Source: Octopus vulgaris (lineage: Eukaryota). Taken from it: a stretch of DNA of 64,000 nt. Below, in pieces: positions 8,736 through 62,614 of the stretch. The position numbers and the translations under genes are program-made. The notes beneath the pieces are model-generated. The model made no database searches, was not told where the DNA came from, and saw only the letters and a list, made by a program, of their open reading frames with translations. Within the stretch, counting starts at the first letter, position 1. Every line of letters begins with the position of its first letter. Where the stretch lies: assembly GCA_951406725.2 (NCBI GenBank), contig OX597826.1, forward strand, positions 57,164,001-57,228,000, in the 5' to 3' direction.

Positions 8736-8752
8736 TACATATATATATATGT

Positions 8753-8990
8753 GGAGGCGCAATGGCCTAGTGGTTAGGGCAGCGGACTTGCGGTCGGAGG
8801 ATCGCGGTTTCGATTCCCAGACCGGGCGTTGTGTGTGTTTATTGAGCGAAAAAACACCTAAAAGCTCCACGAGGCTCCGGCAGGAGGTGGTGATCCCTGC
8901 TGTACTCTTTCACCACTCTAAAGGCGGTGCTCCAGCATGGCCGCAGTCAAATGACTGAAACAAGTACAAAAAAAAAAAAAAAGAAAAAAT
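8753..8990 (+). mobile_element. chimeric SINE: family B head plus family A 3' tail
   Basis: 8753-8916 matches the head of 24643-29(-)-type family B copies (24643-25029 and 40244-40628); 8918 onward is the family A tail CTAAAGGCGGTGCTCCAGCATGG. Confidence 0.8.
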
Positions 8991-14127: not shown

Positions 14128-15065
14128 AGGATGAAAGGTAGACTGTATGATGCATGTGTGTGAACTGCCATGCTACACTGCAGTAAAACATGGGCCATGC
14201 ATAGGCTTGACAGAAATGGAGCTAGTATGATCTGTGCATACACAACTGAGTGTAAGCACCCTGAGAGAAAAGTTGGGCATAAGAAGCATCAAATGTGGTG
14301 TACAAGAGAGATGATTGTGCTGGTATGGTCATGTGCTATGTATGGATAAGGACAGCTGTTTGAAGAAGTGCCACTCCCTAACTGTGGAAGGAACCTATGG
14401 AAGAGGTAGACCCAGGAAGACATGGGATAGGGTAGTGAAGTATGACATTTGAACATTGGGCCTCACAGAGGCAATGACAGAAGACTAAAATTTTTGGAGA
14501 TATGCTGTGATTGTGAAGACCCAGAGACTAAAGTGAGATCACAGCCATGCATGTCTGGCCCAGTTAAGAGTATCCCTGATGCGTTGGGCGATATGATATG
14601 CTTGAGAAGACCTGTTGAGTCAAGTGAAACCAATATCATAGCTGTGGCCAGTGCCCCCTGACTGGCTCCTGTGCTGGTGGCATATGAAAAGCACCACCTG
14701 AACATGGTCGATGCCAGGTCCACCTGACTGGCTCCCATGCCGGTGGCACGTAAAAAGCACCATCCAAACGTGGCTGATGCCAGTACCCCTGACTGGCCCC
14801 TGTATTAGTGGCACGTAAAAAGCACTATCCAAATGTGATCAATGCCAGGCCTGCCTGACTGGCTCCTGTGCCACTGGCATGTAAAAGGCACCCACAACAC
14901 CCTCGGAGTGGTTGGCATTAGGAAGGGCATTAAGCTGTACGAACATTGCCAGATCAGATTGGAGCCTGGTGCAACCACTAGCTCTCCAGACCTCAGTTAA
15001 AGTATCCAACCCAAGCCAGCATAGAAAACGGACGTTAAATGATGATGATGATGATGATGGTGATG
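14128..15065 (+). mobile_element. RTE-clade LINE 3' remnant plus family C 3' region with internal tandem repeats and (GAT)n tail
   Basis: Broken translation KGRLYDACV..AML...TWA...LREKLGIRSIKCGVQER..CWYGHVL.MDKDSCLKKCHSLTVEGT.GRGRPRKTW is typical of the RTE ORF C-terminus; repeats at 14640-14900; tail at 15040-15065. Confidence 0.85.
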
Positions 15066-24559: not shown

Positions 24560-25320
24560 GAATTATGTGGTAGCAAGCATTTTGATCTGAGTGACGATCA
24601 TGACTTATCTCCTAAATTCATAGAAAACTATGAAGTTATATAAGGAGGAAGTACTCCGTCGGTTACGACGACGAGGGTTCCGGTTGATCCGAATCAACGG
24701 AACAGCCTGCTCGTGAAATTAACGTGCAAGTGGGTGAGCACTCCACAGACACGTGTACCCTTAACGTAGTTCTCGGGGATATTCAGCGTGACACAGAGAG
24801 TGACAAGGCCGGCTCTTTGAAATACAGGTACAACAGAAACAGGAAGTAAGAGTGAAAGAAAGTTGTGGTGAAAGAGTACAGCAGGGATCACCACCATCCC
24901 TTCCAGAGCCTCGTGGAGCTTTAGGTGTTTTTGCTCAATAAACACTCACAACGCCCGGTCTGGGAGTCGAAACCGCGATCCTACGACCGCGAGTCCGCTG
25001 CCCTAACCACTGGGCCATTGCGCCTCCACATGAAGTTATATATATATTGGCTAAAAAAGATGTAGAAGAAGTGAGCACAAGATTTTCGTAATCTTTTCCA
25101 TAGCATCTTGGAATGTCCATAACAAAATAATGAATGTCTTGCTGTGAACTAAAAGTAGTTTAGAGTTGTAGTGTAATGCTATCCACAATTCAATTACTTG
25201 TCAACACTCTTCTATTAAGAAATTAATCAATGTGTTGCAGAAAGAGGAAGCTGTGGCCACAAAGAAGATAAGTGACTGCCAAAGAGGGATTATTATTCGA
25301 CAAGAGTATCAATAAACACC
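24560..25320 (+). pseudogene. MULE/Mutator-like transposase fossil, interrupted by a SINE
   Basis: Translation ..FIENYEVIY[SINE]IG...WNVHNKIMNVLL*TKSSLEL*CNAIHNSITCQHSSIKKLINVLQKEE resembles the MULE motif W-N-V..R....LPRTNN.LEGWHN.....HP.IW..I..L.KEE. Confidence 0.6.
24643..25029 (-). mobile_element. tRNA-headed SINE (family B), full length, young
   Basis: Head GGAGGCGCAATGGCCCAGTGGTTAGGG...GGTTTCGACTCCC; CpG-rich; 13-bp TSD ATGAAGTTATATA at 24630-24642 and 25030-25042. Confidence 0.92.
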
Positions 25321-37850: not shown

Positions 37851-39749
37851 TAAATAGACAAGGCTGTGGTATGTAAACAAATGGGACAGCACATTACATT
37901 CTTTGCAATTCAAACAGTGATTTGTTTGAAGTTCTTTTTGTCAGTAGAACAATTGCAGGTTCTCATCCTCTGAAGAGTGGCCAGTCAGATATGAAACTTA
38001 TCATTCTTCTCTTTACGAAAATATTAACAAAATGTATTGTTTACTCTCTGCAGTGTAAGCAATACAAGCTGTGGCCTAACTACATTAAATTTATATTTGA
38101 TTTCTTCGTACACACTATTTGTGCATAAAAGATAGTCCGTCAGTCTTGGGTGGTGGTGAGAGATTTATGCATTTATGTTTTGAAGATGGACATAACTTTG
38201 AAGTTTTGCCAATTGAGGCTTTGCAAATTGTACAATAAAATCAAATATTAGTCATATATATCATTAAAGATGGAATAGATTGGTAGGGGAGACAGAGCTC
38301 AAATATCAGAAAAATAATGAAGAATCAACAGTAAAGTTAAGCCCACCTGAAATCACCTCTAAACCTAATTACACAATACATTCTGTTTTAAAGTTTTCAT
38401 ATTTGAGTTAAGATCTCTCATCATAATTTTAGATAAGAATTTGATAAGTTTTTAAATATTAATTTAATAATGAGAAAAAAATAATTTGGTGTTTAACTAA
38501 ATCCTAATGAATTCTCAACTGTTTTCAAGATTAACTGAAAAACCTATATGGTGTGTTTCATGTGAAGTATAGCCAAAATAGGGTTAAATATATGATCTAG
38601 GAAAGAAAATAAATCAGAAATGTGTTTAAATTAAATATGCTTTAAAAGGTGGGTGAAGTAATGTGAAAGTGGGAAGAAGGTTCAATATAGATGAACACAG
38701 AATTATTATTCTAATGAGTTATACATAATAAAATAGAGTTTGTTCGCTTGTATGTTCCTTTGTTTTTATGTCTGCTATTCAATGCCAGCATGCATTGGGC
38801 AAATATGTAATACTGAGGTATTGTTTTACTGCAAGATATTCTTCCTGTAGTTAAACCTTGCTTGCTTTTCAAGTAAGGGTCTTTCTTAATGTATTTTTCT
38901 TGCCTTTGAACGTACAGAACCTGAAGACAAGTGTTCCACAAGCAATGTCAACATTCACATAAGAGCATACACACATAAGCACACCTCCTTCTCTCACATA
39001 GACATATACACACATAGATATGCACACACAATGGTCTTCCATAAAGTTTCTGTCATCTAATTCCACTTATAAAGGATTGACTGGCTTGAGGCTGCAATAG
39101 AAAACATTTACCCAAAGTGCCATTTTGCAAGATAGGATTTGAGACTCATATGATCACAAAGTAAATTTTGTATCCACACAGCCATGCATGCAGCTAATTA
39201 TATTTATATTCATCATTGCATCAAGTCGTAAATTATAAAACAAGGTATTTTTATTTAAAAACACTCTGTTTCATATCTAATATGTAACTTATTATAATAA
39301 TACTTCTAAATCCATTCACAGTAATTTCTACCCAAACCATACAACTTCAATTACTTTCATTATGGATTTAAACACATTCTTAATCTCCATCCATGGAGCA
39401 TATATTTAACAAAACTTCATTTTTGTCAATATTGCTGGTTCAGCATTATTTTTCTGACACTAAATTTCATCTCCTCCATCAACCACTTCCATCCTTAATC
39501 CTATAATTAGCATTCAATTTTTTTGTACAGTTTGAAAAAAAAAAAACAACAACAACCAAGGAAACTTCAAAATCACAGCTAAATTTCAAAAAGTAAATAT
39601 TTAACATATTTCATTCAACTCAAAATACTGAGTCTTTTTCTTGTTTAATATATTTTACATATCTAACTAAAATATCTATATCAATATGCAATGAGAATAA
39701 TTGCTTAACTACATATGAAAGCAATTATGACCCTTATATCTTCTGGTAC

Positions 39750-39877
<128 letters not shown>

Positions 39878-39984
39878 TCGGGGTGAGTACTTGATAATTA
39901 TAAGCACCTGTGTATACCGTTTGGTGGTGTAGGTGGTGGAGTAAATTGATCAAAATAAAATAAAAACATGATGCGAAGGATTCA

Positions 39985-40062
39985 GCGGTACATATGTTTC
40001 GGGCCTTTATTAGACAGATTTATAACAATGCATAATGTATGTCTGTGGCCTTCTTCAGCCGC
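39985..40062 (-). ncRNA. type I hammerhead ribozyme motif (mirror copy)
   Basis: Exact reverse complement of 40087-40164. Confidence 0.75.
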
Positions 40063-40086
40063 GCACAACAGCTTCCGCTGTTGTGC

Positions 40087-40164
40087 GCGGCTGAAGAAGG
40101 CCACAGACATACATTATGCATTGTTATAAATCTGTCTAATAAAGGCCCGAAACATATGTACCGC
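40087..40164 (+). ncRNA. type I hammerhead ribozyme motif
   Basis: Stem I GCGG/CCGC; core CUGAAGA; stem II GGCC/GGCC with an A.C closing mismatch and long loop; GAAA; palindromic stem III ACAUAUGU; GUA triplet with predicted cleavage between 40160 and 40161. Confidence 0.75.
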
Positions 40165-40202
40165 TGAATCCTTCGCATCATGTTTTTATTTTATTTTGAT
40201 CA

Positions 40203-40243
<41 letters not shown>

Positions 40244-40246
<3 letters not shown>

Positions 40247-40628
40247 GAGTTGCAATGGTCCAGTGGTTAGGGTATCGGATTTGCAGTTGTAGGATCATGG
40301 TTTCAATCCACAGACCGGGCGTTGTGAGTGTTTATTGAGCAAAAACACCTAAAGCTCCATGAGGCTCCAGCAGGGGGTGGTGGCGAACCCTGCTGTACTC
40401 TTTCAGCACAACTTTCTCTCACTCTTTCTTCCTGTTTCTGTTGTACCTGTATTTCAAAGGGCCAGCCTTGTCACACTCTGTGTCAGCCTGAATCTACCTG
40501 AGAATTACGTTAAGGTGTACACGTGCCTGTGGAATGCTCAGCCATTTGCATGTTAATTTCATGAGCATGCTGTTCCGTTGATCAGATCAACTGGAACCCT
40601 CATCGTTGTAACCAACGGAGTGCCACGA
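40244..40628 (+). mobile_element. SINE family B, full length, CpG-decayed
   Basis: Colinear with the reverse complement of 24650-25029. Confidence 0.9.
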
Positions 40629-40631
40629 TAT

Positions 40632-40669
<38 letters not shown>

Positions 40670-41557
40670 CAAGAAACTCAAAAGAGGGCAGCAGTGTTGA
40701 ATTCCCTCCTTCACCAAAAGCCAATTACATGAGAATGGCAATTGAAAAGTGATTACACTGGCAATGTATAAAAGAATATATATATATGATGCATAACATA
40801 TATTCGCATGTGTATATGTATGTATATACATACATACACACACACACATATATATTTATACGTATGTGTGTATATATATATATAAATATATATATGTATG
40901 TATATATGTATACATACACACACATATATAGGTAATGTACAGCCCACACACTCAAAAGTAAATACATAAATATAGATACATGTGTGTGTATATATATATA
41001 TATATATAAGTATGTATGTATGTATGTACACAAAGAAGCTAAAGACACAGACTTTGGTGTGTGTAGCTTCCTTATATACTTGATACCACTTTATTCTTGT
41101 ACGTGAATACATTAATGCCATTGCTACATATCCGACCCTATAAGACAACACAGACTTTACCATTATTTCTATGGAACTTCCATATATTTGAAATATGACC
41201 ATCAAAATGCATATCTGATCTACATCATTTTATAAATATTGTGGTAACTAAATCAAACAAACATTGTTATACACAACATAATCAGAGAACGGATTACCAT
41301 CTACACTACTACTTTAGATTCAATTCCACACTGACACCATATGCAGATAAATATAGACACAAAGAACCATGTATAGATTAGATTCTACATATAATGACAC
41401 ATGCATGATTTTGTTTGTTTTTGTTTTTAGCATCTTGTTTTTTTTGTTTTTTTTTGTATTAGATGTAATCGCATGCATACATATCTGTACTTTACACTTA
41501 CTGATATACGTATAAAAATACTCTTATAGATATGCACAAGTGTTCATACACACATAT

Positions 41558-42659: not shown

Positions 42660-42920
42660 ATCAGCATCCTTTGATGTCTGTTTTCCATGCTGGCTTGAGT
42701 TGGACAGTTTGACCAGAGCTGGCAAGCTGGAAAGCTACATACATTTACAGTCCGATTTGGCTTGTTTTCTATGACTGGATGCCATTCCTAGAGCCAACCA
42801 TTCCAAAGAGTGTGCTGGATGCATTTTATGTGGCACCAGCATAGTTGCTTTTACATGGTGCTGGTACAGATGCTTTTTACATGGCCCCAGCACAGGTGCT
42901 TTTTACGTGGTACTGACACG
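42660..42920 (-). mobile_element. family C, diverged copy
   Basis: gttttccatgctggc..gttggacagtttgacc, ggatgccattccta, tgctttttac repeats. Confidence 0.7.
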
Positions 42921-51677: not shown

Positions 51678-53372
51678 TCATGGGGGCTTTCTAGCAACTG
51701 CTATTTGGTGCATGAGAGAGTTCGATGCAGCTGCCCTCATCTGCCCCTCCTGCCGTGAAGTTGGTTCATCTGGGACACCAGACAGGAAGAGATCCAGCTT
51801 CATCTTAAAGACATCTGTATCCACCCCATGCAGGTCTCTCAGGTTCTTCGGGAGGATATTGAAGAGCTGTGGGCCTCGGAAGCCCAGGCTATCACAGAAT
51901 CTTGTCCTACATCTTGATGGCAGGTTTGGAGTCCTAGGCACCACGCAGTGGCGCCCAGTTCTGGCATTTGTGTAACTCTCGATGCCAAAGTTCAGGACAC
52001 TTCCCTCCAGGATCTTCCAGATGTATATTATGGCATATCTTTCCCGCCTACGCTCCAGGGAGTATAATTTTAATCTCTTGAGTCTTTCCCAGTAGCTTAC
52101 ATTCTGCATAGAGGCTATCTTCTTTGTGTAGCTTCGTTGGATCGCCTCAAGTTCTGTGATCAACTTGACACTGGATGGTGACCATAGCTGAGAGCAATAG
52201 TCAAAGTGGCTTAGGACAAGTGTCTTCCAGAGGACCATCATGGTTTCTTGTTCTCTTGTTCTAAAGGTTCTAAGAATCCAGCCAGCCAGCCGTCTACATT
52301 TCACTGTCAGTTTAGCAACATGTACATGAAAGGTCGCGTCATCACTCATGTGAATACCAAGGTCACGCACTGATTGTGCCTCTGGGATTGCAATCCCTCC
52401 GGGTCCAGTGTATTCATTGGGTATTGCATTCAGTTTTGCATGCTGATAGTATAAAGCTTGAAACTTTCCAGCATTGAACTGCATGCTATTCTTTTCAGCC
52501 CACTTGTATATTTCGTCCAGCTCACATTGCAGGTTTTTAGTGTCCTCAGGGTTCTGTATTGCCTGTGAAACTTTTGTATCATCTGCATAACTTGTGATCG
52601 TGGATCTCTGCGTGGCTGAGGGCATGTCTGAGAGGGCCATTATGAACAGTAGTGGTCCCAAAACAGTGCCCTGTGGAACACCACTCATTATTTGCGTGTT
52701 AATGGAAGTGGCCCCATTGGCTACTACCACCTGACTTCTATTCTTCAGAAAGTCGTGAAGCCATTCTCCTAGTTTTCCAACTATGCCAAGATCACGCAAC
52801 CTGTGACATATCATTCCGTGATCGACTTTATCGAAGGCCTTTGCGAAGTCGAGATATATGACTTCCACATTTGAGTGGTTGAGCAGTTGTTTCAGCACCC
52901 AGTCATAGTGCTGCAGGAGCTGAGTTAAGCAGCTTCTTCCTGGTCGGAAACCATGTTGGGTGTCAGGCAGCAAGTCATTTTCTTCAAGGAAGGTGATTAG
53001 TTTCCTTCTGACTATTCGTTCCATGACCTTGCTGATGTGTGAGGTCAGAGAGATAGGTCTGTAGTTCTTTGCCTCCGCTCTGCTACCTCCTTTATGAATA
53101 GGGCATATTTTACCTTCCTTCAGTCCCCTTGGAAGTTTGCCAGCTGCAAGGAAGCTCTGAAAGAGGGACTGCAGTGGTCTTGCTAAGACTCTCTTACATA
53201 CTTTTAGGAGGATTGCCGGGAATCCATCGGGGCCAGTAGCTGAGTCTATTTTCATTTCATCTATAGCCTTTATTACATCGTCTTCCTTTATCTCGATGTA
53301 ACTTATCGTCGCCGCCTCTGATTCTATATCTGCAGTGGTAAAGAAGTCAGTTGGATTGCTGATTTGGAAATG
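51678..53372 (-). CDS. LINE ORF2, reverse transcriptase part
   Basis: Motifs [65 protein letters not shown]; frame stays open upstream of the annotated Met to about 53372. Confidence 0.95.
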
Positions 53373-54781
53373 CCCAAGGGTGGAGTGAAAACACTCTTGA
53401 ATTGTTCATTCAGTATTTCACTTACCCTCATTGGTTTTCCTGTGAGTGTGCCATCCTTTTCAAGGAGTGGCCCTATCCTACAGTGCACTGTAGCCGTTTC
53501 TTTGGCATACCTGTAGAAAGCTCTGGGGTTAGTTTTTATGTTGTCTATAGCCCAGGCTTCTTTGTCTGCTCTTTCCTTCTCATGGGAAAGTTGCAGACAA
53601 TTTTCAATTTCCAACAGTTTTATTTTCAGGCGGGACTTTTCACTACTTTCAATTTGTTTGTTTAGGCGATTTGAAATTTTTGTACGCCGTCTCATTAAAA
53701 TTTTCCTCTCTCTGGGGATTTTGTTCTTGTGTACAGTGGCCTTTCTCTCTGGGACACATTTGTAGCATATGGCTTGCATTACAGACATGAATTGTTGAAG
53801 TATCATGTCGATGTCCGGCGAGGAGAGACATTCAGGCCAGTTTTGTTTGAGGATCTCTTTCTCAATTTGTTTCCAGTTTGCCTTATTGAAGTTCAAGCTG
53901 GAAAGATTCTGAGGGTTTCTTGTAGGCTGCATGTCCGTGCTCTCTTTTGGCCCGTACATGGTCAGCTCTACCATGTTGTGATCCGAGAGTAGTGTCGGTG
54001 TCACTTTCACATTATGGATGAGATCCATATTATTTGTGAAGCAGAGATCCAGTGTGTTACCTGCTCTGGTTGGTTGCAGTACTACTTGCTCCATGTACAG
54101 GGTGTTGGTGAGGTTCAGGAGGGACCTCGCCTGTCCACGTTCACATCTTGTCATTCCTGGGAGAGAAAGGCCCTCGGGCCATCTGACATTCGGTAGATTG
54201 AAGTCTCCCATGAGAAGTACACTTATGTGTTGGTCTAATGTGGTTAGAACTTCTTCTATTTTTAAAAGGCAGTCCTCGAACTTGCCCATATGACTTGGGG
54301 CATCTGGAGGGCGATATGTAGCACACACAACTACATCAAGTTGCCTTATGTGTACAATTAGTGTGTCACACACCGAGTTTGAGTACGACAAAAGGACCTG
54401 GGGTGTGAGGTCCCCACGGATGTACATAGCAACTCCTCCATGACTCCTTTCTTTCCTGTCGGTCCGTAGTACAACATACTGTGGTATGTGTAATTCCGCA
54501 TCTGCTATGTCCGGTTTCAGATGCGTTTCTGTGAGTGCTATGCATAAGGCTTGATTGCATGCGACAAAGTCTCTCAGGAACGGGACTTTTGTCCTGTTAC
54601 TGTGTGTTAGTAGACCTCTGATGTTCAGTAGGAGCATCGAGGTGAGGTGTATGCTGTTGCCGGCGTTGTCCACCCTGGGTCCATCTGCTGTGGCGGTCTT
54701 GTGAACTGTGGGCAGTTCCATCTGCGAGCCTGAGCCTGATGGAGCCAGGTTAGCTGCTGTACAATCTTTTGTGCCATGCAC
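53373..54781 (-). CDS. LINE ORF2, apurinic-type endonuclease part
   Basis: Motifs NIRGL, LTETHL, GGVAMY, YRPP, GDFN, LDL, SDH; frame shifts after FKSVFTPPL. Confidence 0.93.
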
Positions 54782-54906
54782 AAAAAAGATTCCTGCTCAG
54801 CAGCTGCCCTTTCAACAACACGTTGGTGGTTTGTGGTACGCACCACATCTGCGTACCTCCGTTTTGGGGCAGGTGATGCCTGGTCCATCCCATTTCCTTT
54901 CGGAAA
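54625..54906 (-). CDS. LINE ORF1 C-terminal fragment overlapping ORF2
   Basis: Open frame [24 protein letters not shown]...YTSPRCSY* directly upstream of and overlapping ORF2; (S/R)YADVV-like motifs are common in LINE ORF1 proteins. Confidence 0.6.
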
Positions 54907-57128: not shown

Positions 57129-57190
<62 letters not shown>

Positions 57191-57400
57191 TTGTGTGTCT
57201 GTGTTTGTCCCCCTAGCATTGCTTGACAACAGATGCTGGTGTGTTTATGTCCCCGTCACTTAGCGGTTCGGCAAAAGAGACCGATAGAATAAGTACTGGG
57301 CTTACAAAGAATAAGTCCCGGGGTCGAGTTGCTCGACTAAAGGCGGTGCTCCAGCATGGCCGCAGTCAAATGACTGAAACAAGTAAAAGAGAAAGAGAGA
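56967..57400 (+). mobile_element. SINE family A, full length, young
   Basis: As 8301-8735. Confidence 0.93.
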
Positions 57401-62336: not shown

Positions 62337-62553
62337 TTTTCTCTTTTATTCTCTTTTATACTTGTTTCAGTCATTTGACTGTGGCCATGCTGGAGCACCG
62401 CCTTTAGCCGAGCAAATCGACCCCGGGACTTATTCTTTGTAAGCCCAGTACTTATTCTATCAGTCTCTTTTGCCGAACCGCTAAGTGACGGGGACGTAAA
62501 CACACCAGCACCGGTTGTCAAGCAATGCTAGGGGGACAAACACAGACACACAA

Positions 62554-62614
<61 letters not shown>

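Follow-up and report, generated by a model that had tools for sequence, protein, structure and literature searches.

Complex insertions of EN+ Penelope-like elements (PLEs) have been described as combining an inverted truncated copy at the 5' end, a tail of 30-40 nt at a single end, a microsatellite target and a hammerhead in the pLTR (Craig et al. 2021, PMC8557442; Schostak et al. 2008, PMC2377424), and the origin of the inverted ends is listed as open by Craig et al. For the Hydra clade the same account (PMC8557442) gives a length generally below 3 kb, a DKT motif, a CxCX5C linker, a C-terminal GIY-YIG endonuclease with CxxC and CxH around E and N, a (TA)n target and a hammerhead near the 3' end; Hydra hammerheads listed there depart from G-C at positions 10.1/11.1, with U.U in two of four rows examined. 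The minimal hammerheads of metazoan PLEs are of type I, with a short stem I, a long stem II and a palindromic stem III, and already in 2014 they were noted to occur in pairs on opposite strands at distances of 100-700 bp (Cervera and De la Pena 2014, PMC4209133). In that report a single minimal hammerhead failed to cleave, and minimal hammerheads are thought to need dimers (PMC6765202). The hammerhead of Poseidon from Anolis carolinensis (Frangieh et al. 2024, PMC11167929) is one Penelope hammerhead tested with its protein; in the experiments described it cleaved only when the element's protein was present, and it was not required for insertion in vitro. Poseidon also has two discrete 3' ends, one on either side of an AC-rich tail that follows the hammerhead, and an AT-rich target. 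Animal non-LTR retrozymes (bioRxiv 10.64898/2026.07.22.740005) are short, non-coding and PLE-related and carry a type I hammerhead, in head-to-tail tandem units.

The locus compared here with these systems lies in a 64-kb window from Octopus vulgaris (the window being the whole stretch of DNA analysed, 64,000 nt). The perfect hairpin first seen by a sequence-only reading, with 131-bp arms and a TTCC loop, is borne out, since 39942-40072 and 40077-40207 are exact reverse complements and cannot be extended further. It is the sole perfect hairpin outside microsatellites across the window (arms of at least 25 bp, loop of less than 30 nt), and the predicted RNA fold has an energy of -237.4 kcal/mol (z = -41; none of 200 shuffles as stable). 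The insertion extends from 39873 to 40207 (335 bp) and is bordered on either side by (TA)n; the 69 nt beyond the left arm had been overlooked in that reading. These form a tail on the left arm only (39873-39941), the right arm being without one. The TTCC loop, together with the two bases after it, belongs to the upstream sequence of the element itself, and the arms overlap by a self-complementary 2-nt GC. The exact arm-arm junction was found once genome-wide. The hairpin is very probably a 5'-truncated two-armed insertion of a young Hydra-type PLE in (TA)n, with the back-to-back hammerheads a likely passive result of integration. The parent element, the copy number, the pair geometry, the end types and the shared variants are observed. 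The coordinates are summarized in Table 1.

Table 1. Positions of the parts of the insertion and of its borders in the window.
Feature	Positions	Strand	Remarks
(TA)n microsatellite, left target-site side	39789..39872	.	last four bases also fit the element's continuation
One-sided 69-nt tail (long end), AC-rich at start	39873..39941	-	shared with other copies; in the complete copy L058 it lies in the upstream pLTR, and the ORF starts about 80 nt further on
Left arm, 5'-truncated pLTR copy	39942..40078	-	paired with the right arm over 39942-40072; upstream sequence of the element itself at 40073-40078
Hammerhead motif, mirror copy, minimal type I	39985..40062	-	predicted cut 39989/39988
Join of the two arms	40073..40078	.	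4-nt loop and 2-nt GC microhomology
Right arm, 5'-truncated pLTR copy, without tail	40077..40207	+	stops at the short end of the family
Minimal type I hammerhead motif	40087..40164	+	stem I of 4 bp; A opposite C at 10.1/11.1; stem II long and interrupted; stem III palindromic, 3 bp; cut predicted at 40160/40161
(TA)n microsatellite, right target-site side	40206..40243	.	

Several other repeats are present in the window. A dispersed repeat with a tRNA-like start, as judged by eye, occupies 40244-40627 directly after the right (TA)n flank, and related copies are located at 24653-25029 and 8751-8916 (87% and 84% alike). Another short (TA)n-associated repeat forms an inverted pair 5 kb apart (57130-57392 and 62352-62614, 95% alike), and the window contains five or more additional copies of it at full length. 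GC-richer tandem repeats are found at 14647-14892 (66/131-bp period) and 42818-42919 (26/51-bp period). A LINE on the minus strand (51678-54796) encodes an endonuclease (PF14529, PF03372) and an RT (PF00078) in two overlapping frames, which points to one frameshift.

In the assembly (2.8 Gb) 1,120 candidate places were found for the arm, and the 40 with the top scores all match it at 100%. A 22-mer from the hammerhead motif has 1,106 exact copies in the genome. Other copies enter (TA)n either directly (short end) or after a tail of about 70 nt (long end). A 4-kb inverted copy (L031) reaches the end of an ORF, and its DNA led to 238 candidates, many with open RT and endonuclease frames. The copy L058 is complete: its first pLTR contains the hammerhead and the tail, an 836-aa ORF starts about 80 nt past the tail, and a 3' region rich in microsatellites leads to the second pLTR. 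The hammerhead motifs before and after the ORF are 4,393 nt apart, which gives a unit of about 4.4 kb, and the pLTRs are partial tandems with a hammerhead, as in EN+ PLEs. The 836-aa ORF contains YRDD (RT) and a C-terminal VIY..YIG (GIY-YIG endonuclease), the combination that defines an EN+ element. Pfam returned nothing significant for this ORF; its homologues carry PF26215 and some PF01541, and close ones occur in Argonauta.

Marks of the Hydra clade in the L058 ORF are PADKTG at 124, CNCRCASEC at 696, CQLCCVE at 793, NKRSE at 814 and CIH at 823. The GIY-YIG core has one cysteine and no CCHH, as the clade requires, and 114 of 120 arms enter a dinucleotide repeat, mostly (TA)n. In contrast to the clade as described (PMC8557442), the RWK position reads RIRWA at 37, with RW retained and K replaced, positions 10.1/11.1 of the hammerhead are A.C, and the unit of about 4.4 kb, with its long microsatellite-rich 3' region, exceeds the length of less than 3 kb, which is a descriptive and not a diagnostic feature. 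On these motifs, with the references compared by eye, the parent is classified as a young Hydra-type PLE. Its ORF and hammerhead differ by eye from those given for Hydra-1_Obim of Octopus bimaculoides, so that it represents a different family. The Penelope-like origin and the inverted pLTR proposed from the sequence are both supported. Open family frames of 842-850 aa were found at L057, L058, G000:C4:50170153, C31:2487313 and C3:22121923; several long open frames suggest recent or ongoing activity of the family. The copy in the window has no ORF and is likely dead. The locus L032 (3545-7050, G000:C2 near 54.88 Mb) contains a tandem duplication of about 1.86 kb with a short tailed pLTR copy and unrelated flanks, probably a local duplication and not the body of the element.

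Among the first 100 listed matches of the 22-mer (contig C1), 32 neighbours within 12 kb were counted, comprising 28 divergent, 1 convergent and 3 tandem arrangements. Back-to-back motifs account for 56 of the 100 matches, and the other 44 are not in a divergent 22-mer pair. The spacing is 300 nt or less in 10 of the 28 divergent pairs. Extrapolation from 28 pairs per 100 copies on this one contig gives about 300 inverted pairs genome-wide. The combination of an inverted 5'-truncated copy with a one-sided tail, that is, one tailed and one short end, was found in 39 of 40 distinct pairs, the window's among them; the 40 pairs come from several searches in which the exact 22-mer was required in both arms, and are biased to young copies. 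The tail of 69-80 nt is longer than the 30-40 nt given for EN+ PLE complex insertions (PMC8557442, PMC2377424). The only pair with two tailed ends, L067 (G000:C10:27038200-27048100), has the same 22 flank bases after both ends and may be a larger inverted duplication. The inverted layout, taken at first for a special or selected configuration, is the usual insertion product of the family, and pairs on opposite strands have been in print since 2014.

No difference was found over the core of about 92 nt in 28 of the 40 pairs, and unrelated arms are identical in 33% of comparisons. The left copy of the window together with its tail (39873-40078, 206 nt) is identical to 7 of the 58 tailed arms compared. 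The zero mismatches of the hairpin had been attributed to very recent origin or arm-to-arm conversion; the youth of the family, in which unrelated copies are often identical, suffices to explain them, and conversion is not needed. Over 185 nt the arms differ on average by 1.56 within an insertion, compared with 3.67 between insertions, and none of 20,000 permutations was as low; this comparison covers the 27 of the 40 pairs that are long enough, and one truncated arm inflates the value of 1.56. A two-base change is confined genome-wide to both arms of L101, a change in the pair L154/L155 is confined, among 8 matches, to the two arms of that pair, and a variant of L019 has 11 matches, three of them pairs. 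The lower divergence within insertions and the private variants indicate that the two arms share one template.

As the route of insertion, two cDNAs made from one RNA and joined at their 3' ends are somewhat favoured over a single folded cDNA. The RT-endonuclease would nick both strands of (TA)n; one target end would prime cDNA synthesis where the tail ends, and the other would do so about 70 nt further upstream, probably using the same RNA. The two cDNAs would stop early, in the window immediately 5' to the hammerhead, and the 2-nt GC overlap would serve to join them at their 3' ends. In vitro the Poseidon protein cuts and extends both strands, starting at two sites that bound the tail, and both strands used both start sites alike (PMC11167929). 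Poseidon-like use of the start sites alone would not yield 39 mixed pairs out of 40, and the priming steps are borrowed from another clade; the tail of Poseidon is described as lying inside the ORF, with the start codon in stem II, whereas here the ORF begins about 80 nt beyond the tail.

Fold-back of one cDNA is a serious though less probable competitor. A single tail-primed cDNA would snap back on GC-TTCC-GC and copy itself as far as the short site, and the endonuclease would resolve the product, so that the hairpin would still be a by-product of insertion. The 4-nt loop with its 2-nt self-complementarity suits such a snap-back equally well, and the private variants present in both arms are simply explained by copying of one arm from the other. 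There is always one tail per pair, and AATTT is present at both end sites, ATT being the preference reported for the Poseidon endonuclease (PMC11167929). Arm ends lie no more than 30 nt apart in 13 of 36 mapped pairs against 3.5 expected, a point counted against two primers. The joins in the mapped pairs have overlaps of 0-3 nt or short fillers. The mapped set drops L031, L059, L067 and L117, and L033, L095 and L118 are unreliable within it, lying in the repetitive interior. Against fold-back, the DNA mini-hairpin at the fold point has only -0.2 kcal/mol, and the arm that reaches further 5' is the tailed one in 17 of the 36 pairs and the tailless one in 18 (5 of the 13 tight pairs), by up to about 3.6 kb. 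A tail-primed one-way fold-back is therefore insufficient without later trimming; uneven trimming of the hairpin tip at or after integration would account for the longer short arms.

Two further observations concern the truncation points. Of the insertions that start at the hammerhead cut, 5-6 of 12 matches are true truncations, a count without matched control, which lends no support to cleaved RNA as the template. Truncation at the window's fold point was found in 10 of 12 matches compared with 4 of 8 at a control site (one-sided binomial about 0.09, by hand), which is suggestive at most of a hotspot. A literature search, with subscription papers outside its scope, found no published fold-back or template-switch model beyond a general description.

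The minimal type I hammerhead proposed for each arm was confirmed in its geometry, including the predicted cut at 40160/40161. In the right arm stem I is formed by 40087-40090 with 40161-40164, followed by CUGAAGA (40091-40097), stem II (GGCC/GGCC), GAAA (40149-40152) and the palindromic stem III ACAUAUGU (40152-40159), so that the CUGAnGA and GAAA cores, the NUH triplet and stems I-III are all present. All core and stem parts are unchanged in 105 of 124 arms compared; stem variants are few across the family, which is too young for a covariation check. The G10.1-C11.1 pair is absent, with A40098 opposite C40148 forming a mismatch where G-C is canonical. The motif differs from the hammerheads described in PMC4209133 in this respect (in the best register), in its long interrupted stem II and in the distance of 28 nt between the window's 22-mers. 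Rfam gave no match to the single arm at E <= 10 and none of hammerhead type near the locus, and the motif is therefore recognised by its core and stems and not by a family model. A pre-miRNA hairpin was rejected, the best Rfam score (59.4 bits, threshold 101) being due to generic pairing.

The C at 40078 (40071 in the mirror arm; family-wide 11 nt before the 22-mer) is unusually variable, with 144 copies that differ there; at a control C ten bases upstream only 2 copies have another base. The change is mostly to T, probably marking a subfamily, with G in five and A in three of the 100 copies listed, and T and G occur on both backgrounds of a nearby site. The variable base stands 3' of AAG and 67 nt after GTACGT, a context in which an intron might end directly before it, as in Drosophila Penelope.

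The sequence-only reading had proposed that the inverted layout is retained for its silencing of a self-cleaving motif in a host pre-mRNA and for feeding ADAR or Dicer, with editing able to release the ribozyme. Its structural part is supported: with heads joined and tails outward, any read-through transcript, on either strand, makes the antisense arm first, which is predicted to zip the motif into dsRNA. In the folding model zipping is complete as the right arm emerges, with 88 of 89 nt paired by 40165 and a probability of 0 for stems I and II. The same prediction applies to every divergent pair of the family and requires no selection. There may be little ribozyme activity to mask, as the lone arm is predicted to fold poorly into the hammerhead (stem I probability 0.0006 to 0.11) and as single minimal hammerheads were reported inactive (PMC4209133) or, in the case of Poseidon, dependent on the element's protein (PMC11167929). 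The 44 of the first 100 listed copies outside divergent 22-mer pairs persist nevertheless.

The setting in a host intron did not find support either. No host exon was recognised among 212 filtered frames of at least 35 aa, a filter that short or domain-free exons or very long introns would escape; Pfam matches to these frames were sub-threshold except for two significant ones, which belong to the LINE at 51.7-54.8 kb. In five RNA-like runs the fraction of words from 39300-40700 is 0.25-0.35, roughly what the repeat alone contributes, which points to transcription of the family only. The expected hyper-editing gave no signal in the contigs, as both A>G differences of an RNA-like run recur in three other runs, two of them DNA-like. 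Heavy editing has been reported for lizard Penelope, and octopus hyper-editing is given as very high (PMC5625713); by analogy with this family-level report, ADAR action on such pairs is plausible. Maintenance of the layout by selection for masking is, on balance, improbable.

A fold-back artefact of long-read sequencing or assembly is very improbable: the junction is unique in the assembly, from which alone it is known, and is not crossed by any listed contig of four runs (an uninformative absence), but the palindrome ends precisely where the short end of the family lies, it has a one-sided tail and differing flanks, 38 further pairs share these traits while having junctions of their own, short-read contigs contain other such joints, and an artefact would have mirrored the flank too. 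Least probable of all, to the point of being negligible, is a 335-bp mobile unit, either a non-autonomous DNA element of fold-back or MITE type or a retrozyme, which would fit the short, non-coding, inverted arms and the existence of similar-sized hairpins (the closely spaced pairs counted above), but not a junction that is unique here and particular to each pair, the asymmetric ends, the derivation of the arms from the 3' end of an RT-coding element, or the lack of tandem short units here. The symmetric repeats and many copies of one unit expected of a MITE or fold-back DNA element were not found, the locus having a one-sided tail and a single junction, and in place of the head-to-tail tandem units described for retrozymes (10.64898/2026.07.22.740005) there is a single inverted, head-to-head insertion.

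The hairpin itself is ordinary, and the added value of the analysis is modest and comes from the pair statistics, namely the one-tail rule and the relatedness of the arms through private variants, which are counted here beyond the published accounts of EN+ PLEs. The family is well suited to the study of inverted PLE ends, as it is very young, several of its 836-aa ORFs are uninterrupted, and its near-perfect inverted insertions number in the hundreds. The rule of one tail per pair, the private variants common to both arms and the finding that either arm can be the longer narrow the models of integration and favour two cDNAs from one template. It is a speculative and rather unlikely extension that two-cDNA integration, primed from one RNA at two fixed sites with one for each target strand, writes each insertion as an antisense-first duplex, so that the roughly 300 pairs would neutralise their own hammerheads in host transcripts and supply dsRNA for ADAR or Dicer against the active family, in a self-limiting loop. 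If transcribed, the inverted pairs would offer ADAR ready substrates, in line with the report on lizard Penelope (PMC5625713).
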